Assembly (NCBI RefSeq): GCF_000803625.1
Contig: NZ_CP007496.1
Span: forward strand, 1-32,000
Source: Candidatus Nanosynbacter lyticus
GTDB taxonomy: Bacteria; Patescibacteriota; Saccharimonadia; Saccharimonadales; Saccharimonadaceae
DNA length: 32,000 bases
Direction: 5' to 3'
In this document: positions 3,337 to 24,481 of the stretch, in pieces
Position numbering within the stretch: position 1 is the first letter of the stretch
How the letters are laid out: the number at the start of each line of letters is the position of its first letter
Translations under genes and position numbers: made by a program
The notes under the pieces: model-generated
What the model saw: the letters and a program-made list of their open reading frames with translations, nothing else
Told to the model about the DNA's origin: nothing
Databases searched by the model: none

Positions 3337-3339
3337 AAA

Positions 3340-3948
3340 TTACTCCTTAAACACATTGGCATAATTTCTAAAAACAATATTTAGTTTTGATGGATCAAAT
3401 CCTTGTTCTTTAATTTTATTAATAGCAGCATTTCTATATCCTTCTATAGTATCGATCTCTACAATAATACCATTTGGGATATTTGGATCTACTCTATAGC
3501 CTATAGAGTATATTAGATTTTTGATAGGTAATTTTTTAATTATTGGATTTGCATCTTCTAATGCTTTTTGCTCGTCAACAAGTTTGTCTGTTGTAATTTT
3601 GTCTATTTCAGCGCCCCTAGAAGATGATTTTAACTCTTTAGTTGCCTCTTGAGTAATTGGAATAAGTGAAAATACTATCCTTAGTGGTTTATCTTTCTTT
3701 ACTTCTATATGAACGGTTTCGCTCTTAAAGCCATCTCTAGATGCTTTAAAATCATATATTCCTGGTTCTAGATATATAATTTGTGATCCGATAATTTTTT
3801 TATTTTCTACGGTAATTTCTGCTTTATTTGGTGAGACTAATAAAAATACTGGTACCGTATTAATTCTGGATGTATATATGACAATTCCGTAGGTTAATAT
3901 AATAAGTGATGATAAAAATAGTAATATACTAATTGTTCTTTTGTTCAT
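3340..3948 (-). CDS. Hypothetical bitopic membrane protein with PEGA-like domain
   Basis: 202-aa ORF. TM helix ISILLFLSSLIILTYGIVIY. The segment YLEPGIYDFKASRDGFKSETVHIEVKKDKPLRIVFSL resembles the PEGA beta-sandwich motif. Start codon overlaps the stop of the upstream hydrolase gene by 1 nt. Confidence 0.6.
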   Translation of the reverse strand: MNKRTISILLFLSSLIILTYGIVIYTSRINTVPVFLLVSPNKAEITVENKKIIGSQIIYLEPGIYDFKASRDGFKSETVHIEVKKDKPLRIVFSLIPITQEATKELKSSSRGAEIDKITTDKLVDEQKALEDANPIIKKLPIKNLIYSIGYRVDPNIPNGIIVEIDTIEGYRNAAINKIKEQGFDPSKLNIVFRNYANVFKE

Positions 3949-5162: not shown

Positions 5163-5622
5163 CAGTCTGATTCCTCGCATATTCATTAACTATGTCCGTG
5201 GGTACGCCAGCTTGCTTTAGCGAATCTATCGTTTTTTCGCTATTGACTCCTGCAACGACTGTATTATCCTTAAAAATAGCATAAGAATCATAAGTGGAAT
5301 TAGTAATATGGCTAAAAATTGTCATTTTTATTAATTTAAATCCGCCCTGTTCTTTGACTAAGATATATTTTTTTAGTTCACGTTTTCCATACTTACTGGA
5401 AGTGGAATTAAGTAATTCAATGATAATATTCTGCTCAATTGGTTGTTGAGGGCTAGTCTTTTGGGTGGCTGATTTTTTACTGACGGTTTGCTCGGACGAT
5501 AAAATAGTGGTGTACTTACCTTTATCTGGATTTTTCGTGATAAAGAATACAACCAGAATATTTATGAAAAGCACGATAGATAATATTAGTATAGTTTTAT
5601 CTTCCCTATTCATATCAAACAT
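5155..5622 (-). CDS. Hypothetical small bitopic membrane protein (T4SS-cluster member)
   Basis: The ORF track gives 5155..5748, but its first 42 codons overlap the end of the M15 gene. The internal ATGs at 5622 (MFDM) or 5613 (MNRED) straddle the upstream TGA stop at 5617..5615, which suggests coupling. TM helix ILILSIVLFINILVVFFI followed by a domain of about 110 aa. Confidence 0.55.
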   Translation of the reverse strand: MFDMNREDKTILILSIVLFINILVVFFITKNPDKGKYTTILSSEQTVSKKSATQKTSPQQPIEQNIIIELLNSTSSKYGKRELKKYILVKEQGGFKLIKMTIFSHITNSTYDSYAIFKDNTVVAGVNSEKTIDSLKQAGVPTDIVNEYARNQTDV

Positions 5623-8608: not shown

Positions 8609-8611
8609 CTT

Positions 8612-10471: not shown

Positions 10472-11346
10472 TATAGTCTTTCTCCTGTTGGTGCTTGTCC
10501 TGTGCCTTTAGTGACGTAGGTAGTAGTTAGTTCACTCGGGTCGATTTCTGACAGTGATTCACGTGATGATGTGTCGGGATTATATGAAGTGTAGAATAAC
10601 TCACCCAACTGACGGGTGTTTAATTGCCAGCTTTTTACCCCAATTTGGAACAAGCCGCTCATTACTGAATCAATACGATTTTTTATCTCATCCTTTGCTT
10701 TTGTGTATGTAACTTGATCAATTTTTGTTACAGTCGCTTCTTTTTTTCCGCTAAAGAAACTACTGAATAGTCCTTTTGTTTGTTGCTTGAATGCATTAGT
10801 ATCACCATCAGGATAATACGGTACAACTACGTAAAAACTTTTATCCATAATATTTGCTTCTTGCGCTAAAACATCAATAAAGTCCATATAATCATCCATC
10901 AGAACATTGAGCAACATGTTATCTTGATTACGTCGGATATCAGCCAGTCTGTCTAGATAAGGCCCAATGTCTACCCGGCGTGAACGGACCAGAATTTGAA
11001 TTGGAAAATATAGAGAATTGATGAAATTTTGATAGCTGAACTCTATTCCCTCTCTTTCGCGTGAACTCATCAAATCAAAGTTAATTGACTCACATTCGAT
11101 TACTGCTCGGAAACTGCCGTCACTCATAATAATCATATTTTCACGCATTTCAGAAAACAGGAGAGTATTTTGAGTGCTGATTGGTCCACTCTGTTTTTTA
11201 TTTTCTGGTGACTTATCCGGGGTTGGTGTAGTAGCAGATCCTGCTATGGTTGTATTCACGGCGGATTGCTGAGGAATATTAGGAATAGCCGCATTGGTTT
11301 GCGGTAATTGCTGATTCAATTGCTGATTTTGTAACTCTGGTTGCAT
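10471..11346 (-). CDS. Hypothetical T4SS-associated protein, translationally coupled to VirB4 (Q/N/P-rich N-terminus plus globular domain)
   Basis: The ORF track starts at the GTG at 11355. The ATG at 11346 is preceded by the SD-like AGGTGGGG. No TM segment seen. Stop TAA overlaps the virB4 ATG by 1 nt. Confidence 0.6.
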   Translation of the reverse strand: MQPELQNQQLNQQLPQTNAAIPNIPQQSAVNTTIAGSATTPTPDKSPENKKQSGPISTQNTLLFSEMRENMIIMSDGSFRAVIECESINFDLMSSREREGIEFSYQNFINSLYFPIQILVRSRRVDIGPYLDRLADIRRNQDNMLLNVLMDDYMDFIDVLAQEANIMDKSFYVVVPYYPDGDTNAFKQQTKGLFSSFFSGKKEATVTKIDQVTYTKAKDEIKNRIDSVMSGLFQIGVKSWQLNTRQLGELFYTSYNPDTSSRESLSEIDPSELTTTYVTKGTGQAPTGERL

Positions 11347-11355
11347 AAACCCCAC

Positions 11356-12246
11356 CTAACGTAATGAAATCACCACTTCCTCTTCTGCTAATTTATTTTC
11401 TTGCTGAATTCGATTTGCCTCACGTGAAATCGTTTCAATTGAAAGGTCGCTGTGATTATTTGCCAAATCTATTATAGCAGGTGATACGTCGTTTAAGCTA
11501 GTTTGCGGCGTGGCAGTCGGTTGGCTATTAGTAGGTTTATTGTCTGACAGCGGATTGATGGTTGACTGGCGCATTGTTGGGTATGGATTTATCTGAAGGC
11601 GTAAGTCGGACGGTTTTTCTGAGTCGTTATTAGTCTGAGATGGTTGCTCAGATAGTTGACCTGTTTGCATTTTCTCTATTATCTGCTGTCGCCTACGGAC
11701 ATCTGACTGGCTAATTAGATGGTTAATGTTTTGTGCTGTAGTGCTATTTTCATCTAGAATATCATTGGCCGCTTGGCCTTCGTTAAATAAATCGGCGCGC
11801 ATTGAACTATTCGGGTTATTAACTCCACGGATTGACCAACCTTGGCTGTCTACCAGGTTTGCTAAGTATGACAATCGCCGCTGAACCTCGGTTTGATCGT
11901 ATTTATTGCCATATATCTTCTCCTCAGTTTTTGGTGCGACAACTTCTACTAACGTTTCAATACCGTCAGGCTGCCATAGGCGTTTTTTCGGTTTTAACAT
12001 AAAAGAAATAACTGCCGCAAGGTATACTTCCATCGGTTGATCTTTTTTAAGAGGTAAAGCTAAAGCCCCAAAAAACAAAACAACCGGCATTGGAATTAAA
12101 AATAAGGGTAGCAACAATTGGCTCAAAGCATACGCAATACCAATTCCAACAACTGCGGTAATTAAAAACACAAACTGCCGGAAACTAAATGGTCCAAGTA
12201 GCTTATCCTCCGCCTCAACATCCTGAGGAACTTTATATATAGACAT
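11356..12246 (-). CDS. PrgI/VirB3-like two-TM protein with long disordered Q/S/N/P-rich C-terminus
   Basis: N-terminus KVPQDVEAEDKLLGPFSFRQFVFLITAVVGIGIAYALSQLLLPLFLIPMPVVLFFGALALPL, a motif followed by a TM hairpin as in the PrgI/ConD/TcpE class. Located immediately upstream of the VirB4 module. Confidence 0.65.
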   Translation of the reverse strand: MSIYKVPQDVEAEDKLLGPFSFRQFVFLITAVVGIGIAYALSQLLLPLFLIPMPVVLFFGALALPLKKDQPMEVYLAAVISFMLKPKKRLWQPDGIETLVEVVAPKTEEKIYGNKYDQTEVQRRLSYLANLVDSQGWSIRGVNNPNSSMRADLFNEGQAANDILDENSTTAQNINHLISQSDVRRRQQIIEKMQTGQLSEQPSQTNNDSEKPSDLRLQINPYPTMRQSTINPLSDNKPTNSQPTATPQTSLNDVSPAIIDLANNHSDLSIETISREANRIQQENKLAEEEVVISLR

Positions 12247-12255
12247 ACTGCTTAT

Positions 12256-12264
12256 ATTATACCA
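12256..12264 (-). promoter_or_regulatory. Extended -10 element TGgTATAAT, 9 nt upstream of the PrgI-like ATG
   Basis: Minus-strand reading is tttTGGTATAATataagcagtATG. There is no SD between the box and the ATG at 12246. Confidence 0.4.
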
Positions 12265-12276
12265 AAAATACGATGA

Positions 12277-14787
12277 TTATAGCATGTTGCGAAGGTTTTT
12301 GAACTGATCTTTAGCCGCATCAATTACACTCGCTGACAATCTTTCGTCGCTGAGGATTGTATCAATAGTCTCCTTAATAGATGCGCGTTTTTCTTTGCTA
12401 ATTATAGAGGTATTATTAACAGCTTCTATTAATAGTTTAACCCCATCAGCATCAGTGTTAGCCAAAGCTTCCGGTTTATATTTACCACCCTGTAGCCATT
12501 CAGCACAATAATTGAGCAAATCTTGACGGTTATTAATAGTACCCTTAACCATATCGTCAATTAATTTACCACCCATAAAGGAAGCTTTGTTTTTCACGCC
12601 AGATGATGCTAATGCTGCCGCCACAGAAGAATAGAATTCTGGCGGTAATTCGCTAACAAGCTGAGCAACTTCTGTAACGGTCCCATATTTAATCTGCTCT
12701 TCAATTGCAGCTTCACGTACATATATGTTATTGCTATCCAATACCGTTCCATCTGAAAGTGTCACGGAATTGCCTAAAGATATCTTTTGTCTTTGCCCAG
12801 AGCTTAGCTTATAATGCTTCATAATCTGATGAGCTTCATCAACGGACTTGGAGAATTCGCTGCGGTTGGTTGATATGGCAGAGGCTAAGGCGGCATCCGC
12901 GCCAAGTAAATTACCTTTATCATCCACTAAGACATGTCCACCAGCCTTCCCTCGAAGTTCCTTGCTGTTTATCAATTGTTTTGCAAATTCACTGTGCTGC
13001 TGGCGTTGAGCGTTATTCTTAATTAGTCCAGACACTGCAATTTCGGTTTCTAGGTCTTTAATGTCTGATATAAATTGAGCTTGTTGCGCGTCTCGCCAAT
13101 TTGAGTATTTAGTTGACTTAGCTCGTAGAGCACGATCGTACTTTCCATACGTATCAGTTGGTGCGTGACCCAGCGTAGCTTCGGTGTATCGATTGTCATC
13201 TTGTGCGGATAACAGATCTGCACGCCTGGAAGCCTGTCTGGCGTCTAAGTCTGACTTCTTATATCTGGCTGTATTTCTGAATGAGTTTTCGGCATTTTTC
13301 TGTGAAGTTTCCAGATCTTTTTTGCGTAATCTACCACTATGATCTGCCCAACGGCGTAAACGATTTGGGTTGAATCGCGCCATATTGGGGTTAGCCAACT
13401 TCTTGTTTTTAGTGATCTCGCGACGATCTTTAGCCCAGTTTTTAGACTTGTCGTACCAACCTTTATTCTTATCATTAACAAACCCAGCGAACTTACCTAA
13501 TACTCCGCCGCTAAGTTTCAGAATTATAGGTGTTAAGGCTAATGGTATAACTTGAACTGCCATTCCTAAGATTTGCATTATTCCACCATTTGCTCCAGTG
13601 GCGTTTTGGATAATTATTATTCCAGCCAATTGTGCCCCACCGAATATTACAGCGAATGCCGGGAAAAATACTAACATCGTGAGGAATAAGTCTCGCCATT
13701 TCTTAAACCATTTTTCTGTGCCAGGAAGTAAATAGCAAACGAAGGCTAAAGGTGAGATGATAATTAGGATTACAATTAAAGCTTGACGTGCTGCCATAAT
13801 TAGAAGCACTAAGAGAAGCACTAGACCTATTCCTACTAATGCCGATAGTGCTAATGGTAGTAGTTCTGCTCCCATGGCTACTGTTGCGACCACTCCACCA
13901 GCTAAAGCTCCGTTGGACAGTATCATCACAATAACTTCTGACCATGTCCAACCTACGCCCGTATTTTCTCCTACGGTGGATATTGTGTTTTTAATCCCCA
14001 TGAAAGCGTCTTGGAAAGCGTAACCAGTTACGTTTGATAAATCTAATAAAATAGCACAAAACGTAAACGATAAATTGACTAACACCGCCGCAATCACTAA
14101 CCTAGGGAGCATTTTTTTGATACCGTAATTGCTAATTCCTACAGAGGTCAATTGTGAGTAGATAATCACCAAAAACGCCACAATAAACGCCACGTTGCTG
14201 ATGTTGCGCATAATGACCCACGCCAAATAAATTCCACTGTTTTGATTGGTCGTTTCTAATGGCTTAGTTTTTAAGAACTCCTGAAGCGCGCTGTACATAT
14301 AATCTATGCCATCAGCTAACCAATTGGAGAGTGGACAGATAATCCAACCTATTCCCTGTACGTCACAGGAAGTGCTGGTTGAATTTTCTGAGGGAGATTC
14401 AATTGAAATAGTTGAGGTGCTGGTTTGTTCGTAGGTGTTTGGTGGCGCAAATGAATAAACCGCGTAAGTTGCGGAACTTAGTGAAGATATTTCGCTTGAT
14501 GGGAAATAAATAACCTTGGCTTCTTTTTTATTCTTATCTTCATTAACATAAACAAGCGAATTATCAGGTAGGTTAAATTGTTTGATCTTTTTATCATCGC
14601 TTACCTTTGTATATTTTTCTTTATTATAGGTTAAATTACGACCACTCCATTCTGCGTCTACGGCGTAAACAGAAGTTGAATGTGCTAAGGTATTAAGAAA
14701 AATGCCCACCAGCATCCCTGCTATCAGCAACACGAACCACTGCAGCCACTTATTAAGAAGCTGCTTATGGGAAATCAACCACTCCAT
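12277..14787 (-). CDS. VirB6/TrbL-like polytopic channel protein, paralogue A (836 aa)
   Basis: N-terminal TM, an ectodomain of about 130 aa, the CDVQGIGWIICPL motif, then 6 or more TM helices (e.g. VGISNYGIKKMLPRLVIAAVLVNLSFTFCAILLDLSNV). Ends in a hydrophilic C-terminal region of about 380 aa. Clear paralogue of 14861..17449. Confidence 0.7.
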   Translation of the reverse strand: MEWLISHKQLLNKWLQWFVLLIAGMLVGIFLNTLAHSTSVYAVDAEWSGRNLTYNKEKYTKVSDDKKIKQFNLPDNSLVYVNEDKNKKEAKVIYFPSSEISSLSSATYAVYSFAPPNTYEQTSTSTISIESPSENSTSTSCDVQGIGWIICPLSNWLADGIDYMYSALQEFLKTKPLETTNQNSGIYLAWVIMRNISNVAFIVAFLVIIYSQLTSVGISNYGIKKMLPRLVIAAVLVNLSFTFCAILLDLSNVTGYAFQDAFMGIKNTISTVGENTGVGWTWSEVIVMILSNGALAGGVVATVAMGAELLPLALSALVGIGLVLLLVLLIMAARQALIVILIIISPLAFVCYLLPGTEKWFKKWRDLFLTMLVFFPAFAVIFGGAQLAGIIIIQNATGANGGIMQILGMAVQVIPLALTPIILKLSGGVLGKFAGFVNDKNKGWYDKSKNWAKDRREITKNKKLANPNMARFNPNRLRRWADHSGRLRKKDLETSQKNAENSFRNTARYKKSDLDARQASRRADLLSAQDDNRYTEATLGHAPTDTYGKYDRALRAKSTKYSNWRDAQQAQFISDIKDLETEIAVSGLIKNNAQRQQHSEFAKQLINSKELRGKAGGHVLVDDKGNLLGADAALASAISTNRSEFSKSVDEAHQIMKHYKLSSGQRQKISLGNSVTLSDGTVLDSNNIYVREAAIEEQIKYGTVTEVAQLVSELPPEFYSSVAAALASSGVKNKASFMGGKLIDDMVKGTINNRQDLLNYCAEWLQGGKYKPEALANTDADGVKLLIEAVNNTSIISKEKRASIKETIDTILSDERLSASVIDAAKDQFKNLRNML

Positions 14788-14795
14788 CTGAGGTT

Positions 14796-14824
14796 ATATT
14801 AGCATTTTTGATGGAAAAAGTCAA
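14796..14824 (-). promoter_or_regulatory. Sigma70-like promoter TTGACT-17-TGcTAATAT, 8 nt upstream of the VirB6-like A ATG
   Basis: Minus-strand reading is TTGACTttttccatcaaaaatgcTAATATaacctcagATG, in the 73-nt gap between the two VirB6-like genes. No SD. Confidence 0.5.
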
Positions 14825-14860
14825 GAGAAGAAGTTGTGTATGATTTTTTCTTGCTTAATG

Positions 14861-17449
14861 TCATCTGCCGTATTTATTAACCTCTTCGTCAGAGGGAATA
14901 ATTATCCCTCCAGAGCTACTGTTGCTCTGTTGGTTATTTTGTTGAGAATTAGAGGAGGATGTATTCTGTGGTGTATTCTCGGCAACCACTCCGTGAGCAC
15001 TTAACGCCTCATATATTGCTTGATTTATATTTTTTGCAGTATTTGGATTTGATACGGCAACTTCTCCTGCTTTTTTAAATGCAGCCGAAGCTTTTTCATT
15101 CTTACTATCGGCAATAGCTTTAGATAGCCATTTGGTTGCTGCGCCATTTTGTACTAAGTGCTCTGCTTGTAGATTTCCAGACTCGGTATTATTTACTGCC
15201 ATGTTAGATAGATTTTGCATACCATCAATCTTATCGTTGAGAATAGCATCTCCGAATCCGTTTCCTATGATATTATTATCTCCCTTTGCAAATGAACCTT
15301 TAATCGCTCGTTGTTTTATAGAAGTGTCTACACCTTTTAGGCTACTCAGCACCTTCATACGTTCTTCAAAACTACCATTAGCCATAATATGGTCAATAGC
15401 AGCTGCGCGCATAGCTTTTGAGGCAGTTGTGTTTGTGCCGTTGGCTATATTGGCTATATTACCTGATGTCATACCTTGCAACATTGTGGATGCGTTTTCA
15501 ACGTCGCTTTCGAACGCCTTAGCTACAGTTGCGCGGGCGCGTGCTCCACCTTTATCCCAACCCATAAATCGACCGAGTGGACTACTATCCCTCCACGTAG
15601 CAATTTTACCCGTTCGCCTGCTTGCGCGTTTTCTGTCCATGAAGTCTGAATATTTTCTTTTCGTATCACCAATAACAGAATTGTCAACACGTCCTTTTGC
15701 TGTGCCTTTTACGTTTCCAGCGAATCGACTATGCGCATTAGCACCCATTCTACCTATCTTTGCGCCAATGTTGCCCAGCGAATTTAATGAGCTCTGTAGT
15801 ACGAAAGGTGTAGCGCCCAATGGCAATATAGATGCTGCTAGTGCTGCGAACTGCATAGTTTCTTTCGGGTTGTTTGGATCGTCTGTGGCTGACGCTGCTA
15901 ATACAGCTCCCGCTAATTTTCCAGCTCCGTATAGAAGGGATATTACAGGAAATACTATTAATAACCCTCTAAACACTGATACCCATTTTTTGAACAGATT
16001 TTCGGTATTTGGGAGAAGCCATGCTGCAAATGCTAATGGAGATATCGCTATCAATAATATAATGGCAGATTGTCGAACAATTAATATAACCAGCACTACA
16101 AGTAGAGCTAACAGCAGGGCTAAAATAGTAGGTATACTTACAGCAAGGAATATAAACAGACCTACTCCAACTAAGGTTAATCCAGCGGCTATTAAATTAT
16201 AAAAAGATCCAGTTGCTGCTGATTGAGTATCTATTCCTGATGCAGCTCCTTCTAAAACTCCCTTAAGAGAAAAACCGAGTATATTAGATAAGTCTACAGC
16301 TAATTGACATAGGTAAAAAGATAAGTTTACAAGTAAAGCTCCTATTATTAACCTTGGCAGAATTCTCTTAATGCCGTAGTTGCTTATACCGACATTGCTT
16401 ATTTGGGAAAATATTACCCATAAAAATATCAAAGCAAATGTGGCGTTTGCAATGTCGCGAAAGAAATCCCAAGCTTGTTTTAATCCCCCGGATGTAGAAT
16501 CGTTTTTAAAAATTCCTGGGTCAATAGATAGAAACTGTGATATTGCGGAGTAGGAGGCGTCTCCCAAGCTACCAGCAAAACTCATCAATGGACAAACCAA
16601 CCATCCTACACCGTCTACGCCACAGGAATTTTTCTCTTCGTCACTTTCTTCTGGCTTATTAAGAGCATTTTCTGCCTCTTGAGCTTTAGCGTCCATCTCT
16701 TTTTTAATGTCATCCCAGGCTATAGTTGTCATATTTTGTATGACTTGACTCTTATCTATACCTGATCTTGAGCTAACACAGTCGGTGAAGTATTGATCCT
16801 TGGCGCTAGATCCAGTGTCTCCGTATTTACGAGAGGATACAGATTCTTCAGCCGCAGCTATACAAGTCCCTATTAATTTCTTTGCAAGCTTACTTTTTGC
16901 ATTTTGATCACAGCTTATGCTATCACCAATAGTTGCGCATCCAGCTTCGATTTTTTCGCTGTCCGGCAACTCCTTATACCAAGTACTATTTGTAATTGTT
17001 GGTTTTAGAGCTTCCTCTAGCTTGGGCATAGTTACTTGATTAGTGGCAGCATCTATTGAGGCCTTTTTTCTGGCATTTTTAACTTGTTCCTCTTTTGATA
17101 ATTCCACACACCTACCCTGTGAATAGGGTCCTTCCTTAGGTGTTGATCCCTGTACTTCTCGTGATTCAGCTTTATATCCACTATCACATTTAAGTCTGTC
17201 ATAGCTCACTCTATGGTTACTTTTACTACTATAACACCACCACCATCCATCATCTTTACTTTCTTCACCTTGAGGGGTTTTCTTGTAATTACCATATTCA
17301 GTATTACAGATAACGGCACCTCCTTTAATAGGTTTGGAGGTTGCGTCATCCGCATATGCAACTAAAATTGGCTGCAAAATTATAAAAGCTAGCGATGCAA
17401 ATAAAATAATCAGCAGTGGTTTTATAGGATTATAGTAAAAATACCGCAT
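14861..17449 (-). CDS. VirB6/TrbL-like polytopic channel protein, paralogue B (862 aa)
   Basis: N-terminal TM, then a Cys-rich ectodomain of about 270 aa. Motif CGVDGVGWLVCPL. Core VGISNYGIKRILPRLIIGALLVNLSFYLCQLAVDLSNI is nearly identical in pattern to paralogue A. Hydrophilic C-terminal region ends in an S/N/Q low-complexity tail. Confidence 0.7.
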   Translation of the reverse strand: MRYFYYNPIKPLLIILFASLAFIILQPILVAYADDATSKPIKGGAVICNTEYGNYKKTPQGEESKDDGWWWCYSSKSNHRVSYDRLKCDSGYKAESREVQGSTPKEGPYSQGRCVELSKEEQVKNARKKASIDAATNQVTMPKLEEALKPTITNSTWYKELPDSEKIEAGCATIGDSISCDQNAKSKLAKKLIGTCIAAAEESVSSRKYGDTGSSAKDQYFTDCVSSRSGIDKSQVIQNMTTIAWDDIKKEMDAKAQEAENALNKPEESDEEKNSCGVDGVGWLVCPLMSFAGSLGDASYSAISQFLSIDPGIFKNDSTSGGLKQAWDFFRDIANATFALIFLWVIFSQISNVGISNYGIKRILPRLIIGALLVNLSFYLCQLAVDLSNILGFSLKGVLEGAASGIDTQSAATGSFYNLIAAGLTLVGVGLFIFLAVSIPTILALLLALLVVLVILIVRQSAIILLIAISPLAFAAWLLPNTENLFKKWVSVFRGLLIVFPVISLLYGAGKLAGAVLAASATDDPNNPKETMQFAALAASILPLGATPFVLQSSLNSLGNIGAKIGRMGANAHSRFAGNVKGTAKGRVDNSVIGDTKRKYSDFMDRKRASRRTGKIATWRDSSPLGRFMGWDKGGARARATVAKAFESDVENASTMLQGMTSGNIANIANGTNTTASKAMRAAAIDHIMANGSFEERMKVLSSLKGVDTSIKQRAIKGSFAKGDNNIIGNGFGDAILNDKIDGMQNLSNMAVNNTESGNLQAEHLVQNGAATKWLSKAIADSKNEKASAAFKKAGEVAVSNPNTAKNINQAIYEALSAHGVVAENTPQNTSSSNSQQNNQQSNSSSGGIIIPSDEEVNKYGR

Positions 17450-17477
17450 ATGCTTGCATTATAGCATATGCGGTATT
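17440..17477 (-). terminator. Perfect 14-bp inverted repeat (hairpin, intrinsic-terminator-like) spanning the -10 box and the start codon of VirB6-like B
   Basis: Arm 17440-17453 is aataccgcatatgc and arm 17464-17477 is gcatatgcggtatt, with a 10-nt loop. On the minus strand the 3' arm contains ATG CGG TAT and runs into TATTTTTAC. The hairpin lies 22 nt after the lipoprotein stop codon. Confidence 0.5.
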
Positions 17478-17487
17478 GTCATGGTAA
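17458..17487 (-). promoter_or_regulatory. Promoter-like TTACCA-18-TGcTATAAT, 8 nt upstream of the VirB6-like B ATG
   Basis: Minus-strand reading is TTACCAtgacaataccgcatatgcTATAATgcaagcatATG. The -10 box sits in the loop of the 14-bp hairpin. Confidence 0.4.
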
Positions 17488-17498
17488 GATTAGTGACC

Positions 17499-18374
17499 CT
17501 AAGACCACCATGCTTTTTTTTCTACACCGAATGTTATCTCGTTAAGTTCAATCAGATGTTGAATGTTCGACGTATTAACTTCTACGGACATATTAATAGG
17601 ACTGGCTTCGAAGTCCTTATTATTTGATGGCACAGTTATGGTTGCTCCACTTGCCTCAAATCTAACAACTGAATCTTTCGTTCCTTTAGAATTATTGACT
17701 GCGATAGGTTGTTTACTTACTCTCAGTATTTCAGTGTAGTCATAATAAAGCGATCGCTGTTCAACGGTACAGAGTTCCTTTTTGCATGTAGGAGATGTTG
17801 GGTTTGAAGCTGCCCAAAGCTTTCTTATTGCTTCTTTGAATTTTTCTAATTCTTCAGTCTTTTCCGGATTAAACATAGCCGTAGCTAGATTCATTGCCCT
17901 TGTGTAGTTTGCGTCATCAGAATGATCAACACTAAGCATTTGAATTAGTCGGATTATTCTCAATGCACTCCAAGCTGTTTTCTTTGTTACTGGATCAAAA
18001 ACAGGCTCTTCACCGTTATCATAGTTATTTCTAATAAACTGATCTAAAATTCCTACCAAGTCTTCTCTAGAGGCATTCTTGTCGTCTAAGATACTCAGAT
18101 CAATACCTTCGTAATTCCAGTCTTTTAGGGGTTTTAGCATTTCTTCAACATCAGTCTTTCTTGAGGCTGGTGTTTTATCTGGCGACAACTCTGGTGCTGG
18201 ACTCTGAGTTTCTTGCGCTGTAGATGTTGTGATGTCTGGAGTTGGTTCGCTGTGAGTCTCTCTATTACATCCCGCCACTCCAAATGCAAGTGCTGCCGTG
18301 CCAATTAGTGCCATTATTTTTTTTGGTAGTTCTGAACCGCTTGGGTTATTAAGCTTATTGGGACTATAAACCAT
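17499..18374 (-). CDS. Putative lipoprotein, first gene of the T4SS-like cluster
   Basis: 291 aa. Lipobox-like AFGVAGC after a hydrophobic stretch, followed by a P/T/S-rich linker and a globular domain. No recognisable catalytic motif. Confidence 0.6.
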   Translation of the reverse strand: MVYSPNKLNNPSGSELPKKIMALIGTAALAFGVAGCNRETHSEPTPDITTSTAQETQSPAPELSPDKTPASRKTDVEEMLKPLKDWNYEGIDLSILDDKNASREDLVGILDQFIRNNYDNGEEPVFDPVTKKTAWSALRIIRLIQMLSVDHSDDANYTRAMNLATAMFNPEKTEELEKFKEAIRKLWAASNPTSPTCKKELCTVEQRSLYYDYTEILRVSKQPIAVNNSKGTKDSVVRFEASGATITVPSNNKDFEASPINMSVEVNTSNIQHLIELNEITFGVEKKAWWS

Positions 18375-18534: not shown

Positions 18535-18612
18535 TGGCGCGCCCGACCGGATTCGAACCGGCGATCTCCTCCGTGACAGGGAGGCGTGATAGGCCAACTT
18601 CACTACGGGCGC
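18535..18612 (-). tRNA. tRNA-Asp (anticodon GUC), CCA encoded
   Basis: The reverse complement folds as a cloverleaf. Acceptor GCGCCCG/CGGGCGC, anticodon stem CCTCC/GGAGG with loop CTGTCAC, T-arm GCCGGTTCGAATCCGGT, 3' GCCA. Confidence 0.93.
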
Positions 18613-18677: not shown

Positions 18678-18706
18678 TTGACTATTTTACAATTTCTGTA
18701 TAAGAG
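18678..18706 (+). promoter_or_regulatory. Candidate promoter of the pilin array (TTGACT-17-TAAGAG, or TATAAG with a 15-nt spacer)
   Basis: Sequence is cgcTTGACTattttacaatttctgtaTAAGAGaaatttttATG. The -35 is good, the -10 is weak, and no clear SD precedes the ATG at 18715. Confidence 0.3.
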
Positions 18707-18714
18707 AAATTTTT

Positions 18715-19086
18715 ATGACAAAAAGAAATATTATAATCAGTATATTTATAGCAACAGTAATCGCAGGAAGTGTTTTTATACCCAGAATAGCTTTGGCTGC
18801 CAACTGTGGTGGCGCGGAAACCTCTGTTATTTCTTGTGAAGGCGAAGGTAGCACGGCAATTATCAACATAATCAAGCAAGTTATCAAGATCTTAACTGCT
18901 GGTGTTGGTGTTGCTGCTTTTGGGGCTGTTGTATATGGTGCATTTTTATATACTACGTCTGAAGGAAGTCCAGATAAAGTAAAAAAAGCCCGAGAAGTTT
19001 GGATGAATACGGTTATTGGGTTGTTGATGTTTGCATTTATGGTGGCTATTACCAACTTTATCATTCCAGGGGGAGTTTTTAACTAA
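18715..19086 (+). CDS. VirB2/TrbC-like T4SS pilin paralogue P1
   Basis: 123 aa. Signal peptide ...IPRIALA/AN, Cys pair NCGGAETSVISC, then two hydrophobic helices separated by the loop YTTSEGSPDKVKKAREVWMNTVIGL. Confidence 0.7.
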   Translation: MTKRNIIISIFIATVIAGSVFIPRIALAANCGGAETSVISCEGEGSTAIINIIKQVIKILTAGVGVAAFGAVVYGAFLYTTSEGSPDKVKKAREVWMNTVIGLLMFAFMVAITNFIIPGGVFN

Positions 19087-19505
19087 TGAAAAATATTATA
19101 ATTGCAGCATCTTTAATTGTAGTTGGTGCTTTTGGTGCTAATATTGTTATATCTGAAACTTCTTCTGCGGCCTGCTCTGATGGTAAGATTATGACTTTAA
19201 AACCTTGGTATGATGGCCTGTTGGATGGTGATTGTAATGTTAAATCCCCTGGCGATAATACAGACTCACAAGCCAATTTTATTTGGAAGATTGTCCTAAA
19301 CATAATAGAAGATCTCTTGCAGGTTGTTGGTTATGCTACAACTGGGTATATTATGTATGGCGGCTTCCTTATAATGACCAGTAATGGCTCTTCTGATAAA
19401 GTAGCTCACGGACGAAAAACAATCATGAATGCAGCGATTGGGTTGGTTGTGGCTTTATCATCAGTGGCAGTTGTTAGTTTTATATCATCAAATATAGGAA
19501 TATAG
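19086..19505 (+). CDS. VirB2/TrbC-like T4SS pilin paralogue P2 (divergent)
   Basis: 139 aa. Start overlaps the P1 stop as TAATG. Signal-like N-terminus and a Cys pair (ACSDG...GDC). Helix-loop-helix with IMTSNGSSDKVAHGRKTIMNAAIGLVV. Confidence 0.65.
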   Translation: MKNIIIAASLIVVGAFGANIVISETSSAACSDGKIMTLKPWYDGLLDGDCNVKSPGDNTDSQANFIWKIVLNIIEDLLQVVGYATTGYIMYGGFLIMTSNGSSDKVAHGRKTIMNAAIGLVVALSSVAVVSFISSNIGI

Positions 19506-19506
19506 T

Positions 19507-19788
19507 ATGAAATATTTAGAATTTTTTGCTGGATTATTAGGTAGCGCTAGCGAAGTCGGAGTACCAGACAATCAAGTTGACATTATGGTTATTGTTAACT
19601 TCATATTCAAAATAGCTGGTATCGTAGCGGTTATTGTTATAGTTATTGCCGGCATAAACTATTCACTGTCTTCTGGTGACCCGGCAAAAACCGCTAGCGC
19701 AAAAAATACAATTTTATATGCCGTTATTGGCCTGGTGATTATCTCTAGTGCTATTGCTATAACAGGTTATATTATAGGAAAGGTTTAG
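19507..19788 (+). CDS. VirB2/TrbC-like pilin paralogue P3 (short, no obvious signal peptide)
   Basis: 93 aa. TAGTATG junction with P2. Conserved core INYSLSSGDPAKTASAKNTILYAVIGLVI. Confidence 0.65.
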   Translation: MKYLEFFAGLLGSASEVGVPDNQVDIMVIVNFIFKIAGIVAVIVIVIAGINYSLSSGDPAKTASAKNTILYAVIGLVIISSAIAITGYIIGKV

Positions 19789-19789
19789 T

Positions 19790-20170
19790 ATGAGAAATAT
19801 TACAAAAATTTTGACCGTCTGCATGGTTATGATTGGAATGTTTAGCGCATTCGCTCCTGTAGTTTCTGCTGGTAACGGTATTGATATTTGTGCAGGTGAT
19901 GGCTCTGGGTCAGTTTACTGTAATAATAAATCTGATGGTGAAGGTAAAGTTAATGGTATCATAGGCAGTATAGTGCAAGTTTTATTAACGGCAGTTGGTG
20001 TAATTTCGGTCATTATGATTGTTATCGGTGGGATTATGTTCGCAACTTCTAGTGGTGATGCTCAGAAAACAGCAAAAGCCAGAAATACTATCTTATATGC
20101 TGTCATTGGTTTGGTTGTTTCAATATTTGCTGCAGCAATTGTTAACTTTGCGTTTAGTAATTTTAAGTAG
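19790..20170 (+). CDS. VirB2/TrbC-like T4SS pilin paralogue P4
   Basis: 126 aa. TAGTATG junction with P3. Signal peptide ...APVVSA/GN and Cys pair ICAGDGSGSVYC. Core GGIMFATSSGDAQKTAKARNTILYAVIGLVV. Confidence 0.75.
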   Translation: MRNITKILTVCMVMIGMFSAFAPVVSAGNGIDICAGDGSGSVYCNNKSDGEGKVNGIIGSIVQVLLTAVGVISVIMIVIGGIMFATSSGDAQKTAKARNTILYAVIGLVVSIFAAAIVNFAFSNFK

Positions 20171-20178
20171 GAGAAAAC

Positions 20179-20559
20179 ATGAAAAAAACAGTATTATCGA
20201 TAGCATTAATGATTTGTATGGTCTTTGGAGTGTCAGCCCTGCTGGCTACTTCCCCTTCTGGTAGTGTTTCTGCTCAAGTGTCAGATGGTATTGACATAGC
20301 TACTACTCCAGAAATGAAAGGCAAGCAAATTGAAGGTAAGGGTGGCTTAATACAAACTGTCGTTAATGTTTTATTGTGGGTTGTAGGTGCCTTATCTGTT
20401 ATTATGATTATTTTTAGCGGTATCCGTTATGTTACTTCAGCTGGTGACGCTGCAAAAACTAAAGCTGCACAGAATTCACTTATTTATGCAGTAGTTGGTC
20501 TGATCGTGGCTATTTTCGCCTGGGCTATCGTTAATATGGTCATCGATAAGTTTGTCTAA
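20179..20559 (+). CDS. VirB2/TrbC-like T4SS pilin paralogue P5
   Basis: 126 aa. SD AGGAG. Signal peptide ...GSVSA/QV. Core SGIRYVTSAGDAAKTKAAQNSLIYAVVGLIV. C-terminus AWAIVNMVIDKF is shared with P6. Confidence 0.75.
   Translation: MKKTVLSIALMICMVFGVSALLATSPSGSVSAQVSDGIDIATTPEMKGKQIEGKGGLIQTVVNVLLWVVGALSVIMIIFSGIRYVTSAGDAAKTKAAQNSLIYAVVGLIVAIFAWAIVNMVIDKFV
20522..20550 (+). repeat. 29-nt exact repeat, copy 1 (3' end of pilin P5)
   Basis: tgggctatcgttaatatggtcatcgataa is identical to 20963-20991. The flanking coding sequence is clearly more divergent by eye. Confidence 0.9.
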
Positions 20560-20572
20560 AAACATAATAGTT

Positions 20573-20601
20573 TTGCAAATAACAGAGAAAAATGTATAAT
20601 A
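20573..20601 (+). promoter_or_regulatory. Internal promoter-like TTTGCA-17-TATAAT ahead of pilin P6
   Basis: Located in the 70-nt P5-P6 gap and followed by the strong SD AAGGAG and the ATG at 20630. Confidence 0.4.
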
Positions 20602-20629
20602 ATAACATCATTAAAGAAGGAGAAATAAC

Positions 20630-21010
20630 ATGAATAAATTGAAAATGATTCTAGCTGGACTGCTAATTGTGCCGACAATCTCTTTGGCGGTAGCTCCAGC
20701 TGCAAATGCTGCTGATTTTACATTAAGGGGTGGAATTGACAGTGCACAAGGAGAGGGTGTAGATAAGGTTAATTCTAGTCCTGAGAGCCTAGTTAAGCAG
20801 TTTGTTAATATATTCCTATTTGCAGTCGGTGCCTTAAGCGTTATTATGCTTATTTGGGGTGGTATTCGTTACACTACTTCAGCTGGTGATAGCAATAAGG
20901 TTACTTCAGCTAAGAATACGGTTCTATACGCTATTGTTGGTCTAGTCGTCTCTATTTTGGCTTGGGCTATCGTTAATATGGTCATCGATAAATTTACTTC
21001 AGGATCATAA
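20630..21010 (+). CDS. VirB2/TrbC-like T4SS pilin paralogue P6
   Basis: 126 aa. SD GAAGGAG. Signal peptide ...APAANA/AD. Core GGIRYTTSAGDSNKVTSAKNTVLYAIVGLVV. C-terminus AWAIVNMVIDKF. Confidence 0.75.
   Translation: MNKLKMILAGLLIVPTISLAVAPAANAADFTLRGGIDSAQGEGVDKVNSSPESLVKQFVNIFLFAVGALSVIMLIWGGIRYTTSAGDSNKVTSAKNTVLYAIVGLVVSILAWAIVNMVIDKFTSGS
20963..20991 (+). repeat. 29-nt exact repeat, copy 2 (3' end of pilin P6)
   Basis: Identical to 20522-20550. Similarity resumes after both stop codons (cataatagttttgcaaa versus cataataagttttgcag). Confidence 0.9.
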
Positions 21011-21026: not shown

Positions 21027-21058
21027 AAAAAAGAACCTCGCTAATGAGGTTCTTTTTT
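21027..21058 (+). terminator. Rho-independent terminator of the pilin array
   Basis: AAAAAAGAACCTC-gctaat-GAGGTTCTTTTTT, 16 nt after the P6 stop. Confidence 0.8.
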
Positions 21059-21064
21059 CTAATC

Positions 21065-21108: not shown

Positions 21109-21600
21109 TTACAGGACCTGAATCTTCTTCGCCTTCTCTTGTTTTATCTTTTCAAAGGTAATTGTCAAAACGCCATCTTTCAACTCCGCCTTTACACCCT
21201 CTTCATTAACGGCTGTAGGCAATGCTAATGTGCGGCTAAATTCGCCCCAGTAACACTCCTGAATGTGCCATTGGCGTACGTCAGCTTCATCACCACTAGA
21301 TAACGTGCCGCTAATAGTTAAGATTCCGTCAGAGATACTTACGTCTAAGTCGTTGCGATCTACTCCAGCAGTACGAGCTTTAATGATTAAGTCGTTCTCT
21401 GTTTCAAAAACGTCAACAGCTAATTGACCCATTAGATCGTCAGCTTCATCCTCCCAGTTGTCTTCAGCTGGTGCTGCTGGAGCTGGACTGCTGTTGCTGT
21501 CATCGTTAAGATTAGGTAGTAGCTGATCTGTATCGTCAATAAACGCTGCAGCCAACTCATCTTCTGTTAGTAATATGTTATCATCTTGTTTTCGGGCCAT
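21109..21600 (-). CDS. Hsp20/alpha-crystallin family small heat-shock protein
   Basis: Alpha-crystallin domain LAVDVFETENDLIIKARTAGVDRNDLDVSISDGILTISG...GEFSRTLALP...AELKDGVLTITFEK. The ATG at 21600 is preceded by GGAGGA. The ORF-track GTG at 21612 lies inside that SD. Confidence 0.88.
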   Translation of the reverse strand: MARKQDDNILLTEDELAAAFIDDTDQLLPNLNDDSNSSPAPAAPAEDNWEDEADDLMGQLAVDVFETENDLIIKARTAGVDRNDLDVSISDGILTISGTLSSGDEADVRQWHIQECYWGEFSRTLALPTAVNEEGVKAELKDGVLTITFEKIKQEKAKKIQVL

Positions 21601-21704
21601 AATTTCCTCCACTTTTATAATAGGCTCATTGACAAAGTCCTTATTAGTATAACTATAATATGCGGTATAATCAACAGTGAAAGGTGTAAAACGTAAAAAT
21701 TACA

Positions 21705-22379
21705 ATGTTTGATGCACTATTATCTATTATTGCTCCGCACTACTGTTATAGATGTCATAAAATAGGTGGTATTTTATGTAAAGATTGTAAAAAATACATC
21801 ATAAGTCAGAAATACGATATTTGTGTATTGTGTGGTCAGTCCTTAAAAAATGGAAACTTGTGCAAAAAGCATAAAATCTCCTGTGATATGATCTGGTGTT
21901 TTACGAAAAGAACTGGCGTGGTGGCTAAGATAATTGATAATTATAAGTTTAACCGGGTACAAGCTGCTGCTGATCTGTTGAGTGAATTTTTGAATAATAT
22001 TCTGCCCCCTCTCCCGAAAGAGACGGTTATTGTGCCAATACCTACAATCTCCCAAAATATTCGTCACCGCGGATTTGGCCATATTGAAAAGATAGCTAAT
22101 AAGCTAGCTAGGAATAGAAAAATAGAGTGTAGACCCCTGCTTCGACGAAGAAATAATGTCACTCAGCACTTTACTAAGTCTTCGCGCCAGAGAAAACGTC
22201 AAGCAAAGGATTTCTTTGAGCTAAGTGGTTCGGTAGATAAAAATCGTCGATATATAATTATTGACGATATTTTTACGACTGGTTCAACCGTGTTGGCGGC
22301 AGCTGAATGCTTAAGAAAAAACGGCGCTGAGCATGTAGAGATTGCTGTCATTGCCAGGCATGGTCGTCCGAAATTATGA
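21705..22379 (+). CDS. comFC: ComF-family phosphoribosyltransferase-domain protein (ComFC-like)
   Basis: N-terminal Cys4 zinc-finger pattern CYRCHK...CKDC...CVLCG...C. C-terminal PRTase motif YIIIDDIFTTGSTVLAAAECL. Confidence 0.8.
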   Translation: MFDALLSIIAPHYCYRCHKIGGILCKDCKKYIISQKYDICVLCGQSLKNGNLCKKHKISCDMIWCFTKRTGVVAKIIDNYKFNRVQAAADLLSEFLNNILPPLPKETVIVPIPTISQNIRHRGFGHIEKIANKLARNRKIECRPLLRRRNNVTQHFTKSSRQRKRQAKDFFELSGSVDKNRRYIIIDDIFTTGSTVLAAAECLRKNGAEHVEIAVIARHGRPKL

Positions 22380-22835: not shown

Positions 22836-22923
22836 TGGCGGAGAGAGAGGGATTCGAACCCTCGATGAGTTGCCCCATACCGCTTTTCGAGAGCGGCCAG
22901 TTCAACCACTCCTGCACCTCTCC
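22836..22923 (-). tRNA. tRNA-Ser (anticodon CGA), long variable arm, CCA encoded
   Basis: Reverse complement is GGAGAGGTGCAGGAGTGGTTGAA...CCGCT-CTCGAAA-AGCGG...GAGGGTTCGAATCCCTC...GCCA. Confidence 0.9.
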
Positions 22924-22935
22924 ATAAAGCTTAAT

Positions 22936-23012
22936 TGGTACACCCGGCAAGATTCGAACTTACGACCTCTGGCTCCGCAAGCCAGCGCTCTATCCAGCTG
23001 AGCTACGGGTGC
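22936..23012 (-). tRNA. tRNA-Arg (anticodon GCG), CCA encoded
   Basis: Reverse complement is GCACCCGTAGCTCAGCTGGATAGAGCG-CTGGC-TTGCGGA-GCCAG-AGGTC-GTAAGTTCGAATCTTGC-CGGGTGT-ACCA. The anticodon loop reads U-U-G-C-G-G-A. A20 is present in the D-loop. Confidence 0.85.
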
Positions 23013-23120: not shown

Positions 23121-23639
23121 CTATAGTTTTATTAAGCGAATGAGCTTTTCTAGAGCGTCTGGTTTAATTTCTTGCATTGGTAGGCGTGCACCTAACATAT
23201 CGACTATCTTCTCACCTTCTGCTTCAGAAAAATAGATAGTTAGTCCTGGGGAAAAACGCTTAACTGGCAATAATATGATGGAGTGCTGGTTGTTTTCATT
23301 TGATAATCCAAATGCACGAAATTCACTGAAATCATGTAAAACGTCAGCAATATAAACACCCTTTGGGCTAATTGCATAATTAATAATCTGAGGATTTTTG
23401 TTTGATAGGGTAAATAAGGCCACTGCCATAATAGGTAGCAAGGCAGCAAAGGTCCAGTTCTTAAATACTAGAATAGCTAAAGCTATTAGCCCAACTAGGA
23501 TAATCGCAAATATTATGTACCAAATTTTTCCACGCTGAACTTGCACTCCTTCTGGGGCGTTCCAGGCAATTGGTTCAGTTAGATCAAGTCTATCTGATGA
23601 GGTTGGTTCGAATCCCTGTTGTTCTGGATTATCATTCAT
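23121..23639 (-). CDS. Hypothetical membrane protein (TM hairpin plus C-terminal soluble domain)
   Basis: 172 aa. Two adjacent TM helices WYIIFAIILVGLIALAILVF and FAALLPIMAVALFTL. Promoter-like TTGTTC-17-TATACT (23674..23646) ends 6 nt before the ATG. Confidence 0.6.
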   Translation of the reverse strand: MNDNPEQQGFEPTSSDRLDLTEPIAWNAPEGVQVQRGKIWYIIFAIILVGLIALAILVFKNWTFAALLPIMAVALFTLSNKNPQIINYAISPKGVYIADVLHDFSEFRAFGLSNENNQHSIILLPVKRFSPGLTIYFSEAEGEKIVDMLGARLPMQEIKPDALEKLIRLIKL

Positions 23640-24118: not shown

Positions 24119-24154
24119 TTATTACACTTATATGATACACTAAATAGTGAATTT

Positions 24155-24247
24155 GGAGGAGTACCCAAGTGGCTGAAGGGGACGGTTTGCTAAATCGTTA
24201 GTACGGAGAGATCTGTAGCGGGAGTTCGAATCTCCCCTCCTCCGCCA
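24155..24247 (+). tRNA. tRNA-Ser (anticodon GCU), long variable arm, CCA encoded
   Basis: GGAGGAGTACCCAAGTGGCTGAAGGGG-ACGGT-TTGCTAA-ATCGT-variable arm-GGGAGTTCGAATCTCCC-CTCCTCC-GCCA. Confidence 0.9.
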
Positions 24248-24257
24248 AATCAAACCT

Positions 24258-24347
24258 GGAAGGGTGACCGAGTGGTTGAAGGTACCGGTCTTGAAAACCG
24301 GCGTGCGGTAAAACGTACCGAGGGTTCGAATCCCTCCCCTTCCGCCA
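24258..24347 (+). tRNA. tRNA-Ser (anticodon UGA), long variable arm, CCA encoded
   Basis: GGAAGGGTGACCGAGTGGTTGAAGGTA-CCGGT-CTTGAAA-ACCGG-variable arm-GAGGGTTCGAATCCCTC-CCCTTCC-GCCA. Confidence 0.9.
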
Positions 24348-24365
24348 AGATTGCAAGATGAAATG

Positions 24366-24392
24366 TTCGCCAAAACGAGGCGAATATTTTTA
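24366..24392 (+). terminator. Rho-independent terminator after the tRNA-Ser pair
   Basis: TTCGCC-aaaacga-GGCGAA followed by TATTTTTA. Confidence 0.6.
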
Positions 24393-24481
24393 TGTAGTGA
24401 AATATACTTGACAAAAAACAAATCTTATGCTAGCATAATAACCAGTATTCTAAAAAATAGATACAAAAAAGAAAGAACAAA

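Follow-up and report, generated by a model that had tools for sequence, protein, structure and literature searches.

Seven PF18895-family pilin paralogues encoded beside an origin-proximal type IV secretion system of Candidatus Nanosynbacter lyticus

At the start of the Candidatus Nanosynbacter lyticus contig NZ_CP007496.1, in the 32,000 nucleotides (positions 1 to 32,000) that we analyzed and call the window, six small open reading frames (ORFs) resembling VirB2-type pilins lie in tandem, divergent from the core gene cluster of a type IV secretion system (T4SS), and a seventh lies nearby. This locus raises the question of why one secretion system should be accompanied by seven pilin-like proteins. 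We propose that the genes encode seven specialized VirB2-like paralogues (Pfam family PF18895) of a chromosomal, origin-proximal T4SS that act as non-redundant parts of one structure, a reading that we consider likely on balance. It builds on the family, architecture, synteny, orthology and constraint that we observe here, and on the array essentiality reported in the literature for Southlakia epibionticum ML1. The array and its pilin assignment have been described before, and the observation is correct, not new. The initial annotation of this DNA had presented the pairing of such an array with a Gram-positive-style core as unusual, but that pairing is already published for TM7x, for S. epibionticum ML1 and for 383 assemblies from the Candidate Phyla Radiation (CPR). 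The present analysis adds fixed positional orthology, constrained heads, head motifs that persist at great divergence, a third gene without a signal peptide, and a conserved promoter-like element before P6.

The array comprises six ORFs in tandem on the + strand (18715-21010), and the seventh paralogue, P7, lies about 3 kb away on the - strand:

18715-19086, + strand: P1, 123 aa; ALA/A site at residue 28; head with disulfide-type loop NCGGAETSVISC; two-transmembrane (two-TM) PF18895 domain, 30.4 bits, E 4.3e-7
19086-19505, + strand: P2, 139 aa; SSA/A site at residue 28; long head with Cys30/Cys50 and a TLKPWYDGL motif; PF18895 29.1 bits
19507-19788, + strand: P3, 93 aa, short, without signal peptide; acidic 26-aa N-terminus (net -3), two-TM hairpin; PF18895 47.7 bits
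19790-20170, + strand: P4, 126 aa; VSA/G site at residue 27; head ICAGDGSGSVYC; two-TM domain; PF18895 40.9 bits
20179-20559, + strand: P5, 126 aa; VSA/Q site at residue 32; Cys-free head; two-TM domain; AGGAG Shine-Dalgarno (SD) motif; PF18895 46.0 bits
20630-21010, + strand: P6, 126 aa; ANA/A site at residue 27; Cys-free head; two-TM domain; PF18895 49.0 bits
23675-24082 (ORF reaches 24100), - strand: P7, distal seventh paralogue, 135 aa from Met7; PF18895 36.2 bits

Alignment and a hydropathy scan bear out the initial annotation's description of six consecutive small ORFs (93-139 aa) that share one architecture: a hydrophobic, signal-like N-terminus bearing an AxA-type site, a head, a first TM helix (TM1), a loop and a second TM helix (TM2). 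The loop is conserved (..TSxGDxxKxxxA(K/R)N..) and carries a net charge of +1/+2. As that annotation had also noted, the signal-like segment is missing in P3 only, where the scan finds just two hydrophobic segments, and the heads of P1 (C31/C41), P2 (C30/C50) and P4 (C34/C44) carry Cys pairs while mature P5, P6 and P7 are Cys-free. TM1 of P2 is less hydrophobic. Within the window, the other paralogues are 24-31% identical to P1, and the heads differ entirely between copies. The start of P7 is probably Met7, at 24082, because its orthologues begin at that position. Signal-peptide cleavage of P7 is predicted after residue 29.

Using the VirB6-like protein encoded beside the array as an anchor, we found 25 related loci, all from Candidatus Saccharibacteria (Nanosynbacter spp., TM7 HOT-352 and Minimicrobia vallesae), with identity of up to 81%. 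Our comparison set comprises the loci of 21 related species with enough flank, and 147 pilins (7 x 21), searched with a hidden Markov model (HMM) of the seven paralogues. Every species has exactly 6+1 pilin genes (21/21), with order and sizes unchanged. For all 147 proteins the best match is the positional orthologue: orthologues are 70-89% identical, compared with 26-54% for paralogues. P5 orthologues mark the lower end (70%), and P1 orthologues are 89% identical. P7 forms the most conserved group (89% identity, with a ratio of non-synonymous to synonymous change, pN/pS, of 0.04 in the domain), and P3 orthologues are 93-94 aa long in 21/21 species.

The heads, so different between copies, are conserved between species within each paralogue group. 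We obtained pN/pS values of 0.12-0.42 for heads and 0.04-0.26 for hairpin domains; these are crude Nei-Gojobori ratios taken at high synonymous divergence (pS 0.27-0.63). Even the variable heads are under purifying selection. The entire array, its order unchanged, turns up again in dozens of metagenome contigs, and in divergent metagenome arrays, whose P6 is 42-58% identical to that of the window, most long contigs keep a P1-like gene, a P2-like gene, a short P3-like gene and two to four P4/5/6-like genes. Where there is enough flank, many divergent contigs also have a P7-like gene, distal and on the opposite strand. Most first-position genes of these divergent arrays contain the P1 head motif C-G-G-x-x-T-[SA]-[IV]-I-x-C, and most second-position genes the P2 head motif [FL]P[AP]W[YF].GL...C.[IL]K.P. 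In the 18 divergent arrays checked whose third gene is P3-like, that gene lacks a signal peptide. Diversifying selection on the variable segment, which the initial annotation had raised as something to look for in population or metagenome alignments, is rejected by the pN/pS of the heads and their conserved motifs.

Genetic data from a relative point the same way. In S. epibionticum ML1 the corresponding array encodes predicted pilins and is essential, and its occurrence was called unusual for a Gram-positive-type T4SS (Wang 2023, Cell, PMC10633639). The six genes SEML1_0014-0019 encode proteins of 132/185/103/126/127/138 aa, all PF18895, each scored GD/ES/ES, and SEML1_0024, a distal pilin gene after hsp20 and a comF-like gene, was scored NE, as dispensable (Wang 2023). 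It is because the copies form separate conserved orthologue groups, and because six array genes are essential in S. epibionticum, that we regard them as non-redundant parts of one structure.

Among the relatives, split or shortened pilin ORFs occur only in Minimicrobia vallesae IHU2 (CP076459; 6410-8331 of locus L022), where P6 is split by a single-base insertion, the P2 and P4 ORFs are shortened and the neighbours are intact. These breaks are probably sequencing errors, since P6 there is conserved apart from its one inserted base, and the idea that copies decay by frameshift in related strains does not hold. The metagenome contig L029 has two different complete arrays in convergent orientation (7086-9381, + strand; 15451-17777, - strand), each with its own hsp20 and comF-like gene. 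The second array is of the type found in contig L047, and the arrangement looks like an inverted junction of two genomes' regions. We rejected it as a second system; two Saccharibacteria were probably joined there in a chimeric assembly.

The assignment to a pilin family is supported at the level of PF18895, for which the gathering cut-off is 26.6 bits. All seven proteins of the window score above it (29-49 bits, E 4e-7 to 6e-13), and a match at E<=0.01 was found in 147/147 orthologues. P6 has 1037 homologues, every one in PF18895 and carrying the NCBI name 'pilin'. The best NCBIfam match of all seven (E 4e-11 to 5e-4) is NF045849, the Mbov_0395 family of pilin-like conjugal transfer proteins, whose cut-off of 40 bits is exceeded by P4 (42.5); P6 (38.0), P5 (34.6), P3 (33.6), P2 (25.1), P7 (21.5) and P1 (19.7) fall below it. 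The proteins also have the layout of the PF18895 type, being small, with a C-terminal two-helix TM hairpin and a short charged loop, as judged from hydropathy and from AlphaFold2 models of P6 and P3. P6 is modelled with helices at 51-83 and 88-124, and P3 with helices at 26-53 and 59-92 joined by a loop (predicted local distance difference test score, pLDDT, 82-88); pLDDT over the two hairpins is 70-88. A tblastn search with P6 against 72,556 plasmids returned a single weak Priestia match that we judged not meaningful.

How the array is expressed bears on which subunits might be abundant. Three control elements were read from the sequence or found by a consensus scan:

18678-18704, + strand: promoter-like element of the array, TTGACT at 18678-18683, 15-nt spacer, TATAAG at 18699-18704
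20572-20622, + strand: internal promoter-like element and SD motif of P6, TTTGCA-17-TATAAT with TG extension at 20572-20600 (10/12 match), AAGGAG at 20617-20622
21027-21059, + strand: intrinsic terminator after P6, stem GAACCTC / GAGGTTC, loop GCTAAT, T-run; read from the sequence

The putative promoter of the array ends 10 nt before the P1 ATG, and no SD motif is present there; this distance and the missing SD suggest that the P1 message is leaderless or near-leaderless. About 70 nt upstream of P1 are almost invariant among the 21 species, and the DNA further upstream varies. At the P1/P2 junction, a TAATG overlap places the P2 start on the P1 stop, and the P2/P3 and P3/P4 junctions both read TAGTATG, so that the linkage of P1 through P4 described in the initial annotation stands in the raw sequence. 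P4 and P5 are separated by 8 nt carrying AGGAG, and P5 and P6 by 70 nt carrying AAGGAG. That P5 and P6 have SD sites of their own is correct, but the contrast drawn with P2, P3 and P4 is not: these too have SD-like AGGA/GGAG motifs, located within the preceding gene, and among array genes only P1 lacks one. The promoter-like element proposed before P6 is present, and the P5-P6 spacer that contains it is essentially invariant across the 21 species. The terminator hairpin is kept in the same species with compensatory stem changes (GAGCCTC/GAGGCTC, GGACCTC/GAGGTCC); it is absent from the consensus-scan listing.

Beside the array lies a Gram-positive-style T4SS core, as the initial annotation had recognized:

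1-1356: dnaA
1602-2699: dnaN, with the T4SS cluster directly after it
2689-18374, - strand: divergent T4SS core cluster, recognized by Pfam/NCBIfam profile matches and including three unknown ORFs
3948-5186, - strand: Phage_lysozyme2 (phage-tail-lysozyme-like) hydrolase
5615-8608, - strand: 997-aa protein with C-terminal VanY D-Ala-D-Ala carboxypeptidase domain
8612-10471, - strand: VirB4 (CD1110 family), 619 aa; NF045971 383 bits, cut-off 325
10471-11355, - strand: TrsD / VirB4 N-terminal-like protein, 294 aa; weak matches
11356-12246, - strand: PrgI/VirB3-like protein; PrgI PF12666 53.5 bits
12277-14787, - strand: 836-aa protein, unknown
14861-17449, - strand: VirB6-like protein; weak TrbL/VirB6 PF04610 match, 19 bits against a cut-off of 25.9
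17499-18374, - strand: putative lipoprotein (lipobox-like VAGC), 291 aa, no Pfam match, between the VirB6-like gene and the array
18535-18612, - strand: tRNA-Asp(GTC), detected by ARAGORN, between the core cluster and the pilin array

The cluster has the CD1110-type VirB4 with PrgI/VirB3-like and TrsD-like partners that is described for MPF_FATA-type T4SSs of the CPR. The VirB4 and VirB6-like genes lie within 10 kb of the array on the opposite strand, virB4 being 8 kb away, and six tandem pilin genes of low identity near virB4 fit the description of CPR pilin arrays, which have two or more such genes in tandem or separated by one gene. Among the ORFs of the 32-kb window we found no relaxase and no VirD4-type coupling protein, the components that would mark a conjugative T4SS, in agreement with Wang 2023 and Quinonero-Coronel 2025 (PMC12102498). 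The DNA is chromosomal, and the position of the T4SS beside dnaA and dnaN is the origin-proximal placement noted for CPR T4SSs (Quinonero-Coronel 2025).

VirB4 is seemingly split: the 294-aa protein weakly resembles the N-terminal part of Mycoplasma-type VirB4 and TrsD, and the 619-aa protein corresponds to positions 166-751 of the CD1110 model. The VirB4-like ATPase of plasmid pCF10 (encoded by the gene after prgI and known as PrgJ) bears the same CD1110 family name, and the wall hydrolases of the cluster recall the 'phage tail tip lysozyme' gene of pCF10 (known as prgK). The longest ORF at 5155-5748 (- strand) shares 134 nt with the end of the 997-aa gene, and its true start is probably an internal codon. 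The putative lipoprotein is lineage-restricted, with homologues in 20 loci only. The 3' region of the tRNA-Asp gene is conserved at the left end of the alignment upstream of P1.

A fixed, non-redundant, heteromeric pilus or conduit is probably what these genes build, and its assembly could proceed as follows. Six of the pilins would be inserted via cleavable Sec signal peptides, and the acidic-headed P3 without one. In the cytoplasmic membrane they would form hairpins with both termini outside and the short net-positive loop (TSxGDxxKxxxAKN) inside. By analogy with VirB2/TraA and with the model of PrgF on PrgH, VirB4, as ATPase, and the VirB6-like platform encoded beside the array would pull the hairpins out of the membrane, and these would stack into a pilus-like tube with the conserved loop facing the lumen and the paralogue-specific heads on the outer surface. 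Every solved conjugative pilus has this loop-in, heads-out geometry, as does the PrgF model (ter Beek 2025 preprint). P1-P3 would be low-copy initiator, tip or adaptor subunits; we consider them likely minor subunits because their genes are tightly coupled and their heads, with a Cys loop each in P1 and P2, deeply conserved. The shaft would consist of P4-P6, among which the separately promoted P6 would be the most expressed. We take P6 as the candidate major subunit on account of its own promoter-like element and its SD motif, the strongest in the array. P7 would be accessory. During epibiotic growth the structure would most likely make contact with the host bacterium or carry material to or from it.

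Filament formation, heteromeric composition, subunit roles and cargo are the parts of this scheme that we infer. In cryo-electron tomography, the Saccharibacterium Mycosynbacter is seen joined to its host by an unassigned tube that measures 8.6 nm x 61 nm. Conjugative pili are roughly 8-10 nm in diameter, and the tube is thus of the right calibre. In the most specific form of the proposal, which we offer tentatively, six indispensable subunits and an accessory seventh co-assemble in fixed positions, P1-P3 serving as initiator, tip or host-recognition subunits and P4-P6 as shaft, and the result is the tube seen by tomography, taking up or exchanging material. If this is true, the pilus would be a first in two respects, as a heteropolymer of the conjugative type and in having an essential role outside conjugation.

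Several observations weigh against the proposal of a seven-part VirB2-like structure, in addition to the roughness of the pN/pS ratios. The initial annotation had likened the proteins to VirB2/TrbC pilins, and the HMM check it called for upholds this for PF18895 and not for PF04956 (TrbC/VirB2), whose cut-off of 27.9 bits is not reached, the best scores in the window being 19.1 (P3) and 19.4 (P4). PF04956 is the second commonest Pfam match among the orthologues (46/147 at E<=0.01, best 1.3e-5), and at the level of sequence profiles the similarity to TrbC/VirB2 is remote and sub-threshold. Profile searches of the PDB, with profiles made from the seven and from the 147 pilins, matched no solved pilin; Foldseek searches with the P3 and P6 models returned generic helical hairpins only (E>1); and an hhalign comparison with PrgF of pCF10 placed TM1, loop and TM2 in register, but with a probability of 5% and E 0.007. 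Fold searches and PDB sequence profiles do not tell the modelled hairpin apart from any other, so that the predicted VirB2-like fold is supported by similarity of profiles and by the shared architecture rather than by structure. The literature records neither a sighting nor an assignment of a T4SS pilus for any Saccharibacterium, and the tube of Mycosynbacter is not tied to these genes. To our knowledge, all known conjugative pili are homopolymers of one VirB2, and a heteromeric shaft is without precedent. Finally, the transposon insertion sequencing behind the essentiality calls had 11-16 insertion sites per gene (Wang 2023), and for the upstream genes of a tightly coupled operon the calls could partly reflect polar effects.

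The alternative that survives best, and that we regard as possible if unlikely, is a short membrane-embedded or wall-spanning stalk or conduit within the T4SS, crossing the thin CPR envelope with the paralogues in different layers and no extended pilus. Seven fixed paralogues fit a layered structure of defined stoichiometry. A pilus has been observed neither on Saccharibacteria nor on Gram-positive T4SS donors (FEMS review 2025; ter Beek 2025 preprint), the same review discussing a pilus as a possibility, and Gram-positive pili may barely protrude past the wall (ter Beek 2025 preprint). However, the proteins share their architecture with filament-forming VirB2, and Mycosynbacter does display a 61-nm tube; the sequence itself gives nothing to tell a short assembly from a long one.

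It is improbable that the pilins are interchangeable, one or a subset of them being in use at any time, and serve the antigenic or host-range diversification that the initial annotation had suggested. The low identity to P1, the wholly different heads and the separate promoter of P6 could be read this way, and such roles have been proposed for VirB2 paralogues of Bartonella and Anaplasma and suggested for CPR (Quinonero-Coronel 2025). However, copy number is constant and all 147 pilins match by position among the 21 species, the heads are conserved across species under purifying selection with motifs that persist at great divergence, and P1-P5 are co-expressed, being translationally coupled. 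All six array genes are, moreover, essential in S. epibionticum. Fixed orthology, purifying selection and essentiality together argue against antigenic or host-range variation, and of the three suggestions in the initial annotation, major/minor pilin assembly is the most plausible. We reject as very improbable the original reading for TM7x, in which Sec-exported effector or toxin subunits are released through the T4SS like the pertussis toxin of ptx/ptl (McLean 2020, PMC7427843), since the published analogy and the presence of small signal-peptide proteins flanked by T4SS genes are outweighed by two C-terminal TM helices in all copies, scores for the PF18895 pilin family in place of soluble toxin folds, an identity to Ptx S1 of only 11% (McLean 2020) and the lack of a signal peptide in P3.

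Few envelope machines have been shown to be essential when a Saccharibacterium grows as an epibiont, and the T4SS with its pilin array is one of them. With copies that are ancient, fixed and non-interchangeable, the array points to a defined multi-subunit structure rather than antigenic variation. Three features stand out: the conserved Cys loops in the P1 and P2 heads, the lack of a signal peptide in P3 and the separate promoter-like element of P6.

To the right of the array follow hsp20, a comF-like gene, rlmH, tRNA genes, P7, valS and wall-synthesis genes. The hsp20 gene (21109-21612, - strand) and the gene for a comF-like phosphoribosyltransferase (21705-22379, + strand) come directly after the array; their homologues occur in 92 and 81, respectively, of some 105 related loci, very divergent loci among them, and adjacency was seen in those checked (L029, L030 and L047). 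The hsp20 counterpart in S. epibionticum scores as essential (Wang 2023). Directly downstream of P7 and on the same strand is a 172-aa ORF (23121-23639, - strand) with a central hydrophobic stretch and no Pfam match. It has a homologue in 56 related loci (36-98% identity), adjoins a P7-like gene in 3/3 contigs checked (L029, L030 and L047), and its product may be a partner of the distal pilin. P7 is flanked by tRNA genes (22836-23012; 24155-24347): tRNA-Ser(CGA) and tRNA-Arg(GCG) on the - strand, and tRNA-Ser(GCT) and tRNA-Ser(TGA) on the + strand. A 93-aa ORF with a TTG start (24140-24421) overlaps tRNA-Ser(GCT) and tRNA-Ser(TGA) and is probably spurious.

Like the VirB2/TrbC/TraA pilins of diderm bacteria, the products of the array have signal peptides, a pair of hydrophobic helices and a short basic loop, and their profile similarity to those pilins is sub-threshold. 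Unlike these pilins, which occur singly in each system together with a VirB5 tip and whose systems span an outer membrane, the array is multigenic and scores below the PF04956 cut-off. The Mbov_0395 family of Mycoplasma integrative and conjugative elements (NF045849) is likewise encoded near VirB4 in a monoderm, but its 80-residue profile covers the hairpin only, and its members are single-copy and belong to a mobile element for conjugation.

PrgF of pCF10, which is essential, VirB2-like and modelled as a pilus on a VirB6 pentamer (ter Beek 2025 preprint, December), resembles the products of the array in its small size, its two-TM hairpin and its short charged loop, and in being encoded beside the VirB6, VirB3 and VirB4 genes of the same CD1110-type core. 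It differs in occurring as one copy, in its length of 75 aa and in having neither signal peptide nor head; relatedness in sequence cannot be demonstrated, and PrgF serves conjugation with a relaxase and a coupling protein, neither found in this window. The same study reports VirB2-like proteins in ~95% of representative Gram-positive conjugative plasmids, which, with the passing score of P4 for NF045849, challenges the initial annotation's premise that monoderm systems lack VirB2 pilins.

Closer parallels come from the CPR. A survey found 441 arrays, each with 2-11 pilins, distributed over 383 CPR assemblies; identity within arrays averages ~25% (Quinonero-Coronel 2025). As here, these are tandem PF18895/PF04956-type genes near a virB4 related to MPF_FATA, often near dnaA. 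The survey stresses variability and suggests adaptation to host strains, whereas the copies in our comparison set form fixed, conserved orthologue groups. Nanosynbacter lyticus TM7x, of the same clade, has the same six-gene array, reported as an 'array of six small Sec-secreted proteins' beside VirB4/VirB6 and likened to ptx/ptl (McLean 2020); it was read there as possible secreted effectors, and the pilin-family assignment came later.

The system of S. epibionticum ML1 belongs to another lineage and differs in gene sizes (P2, for example, has 185 aa there and 139 aa here), and its window counterpart has a lipoprotein gene and the tRNA-Asp gene between VirB6 and the array. Its VirB6 counterpart was assigned by structure (Wang 2023). 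It shares with the window six tandem PF18895 genes divergent from a VirB6-like gene near dnaA, the third of them the shortest (103 aa there, 93 aa here), and then hsp20 on the - strand, a comF-like gene on the + strand and a seventh pilin gene on the - strand. Two metagenome contigs with S. epibionticum-like gene sizes (L071 and L080) keep the order P1-, P2-, P3-, P4- and P6-like, together with a P7-like gene, and their P6 is ~46% identical to that of the window.

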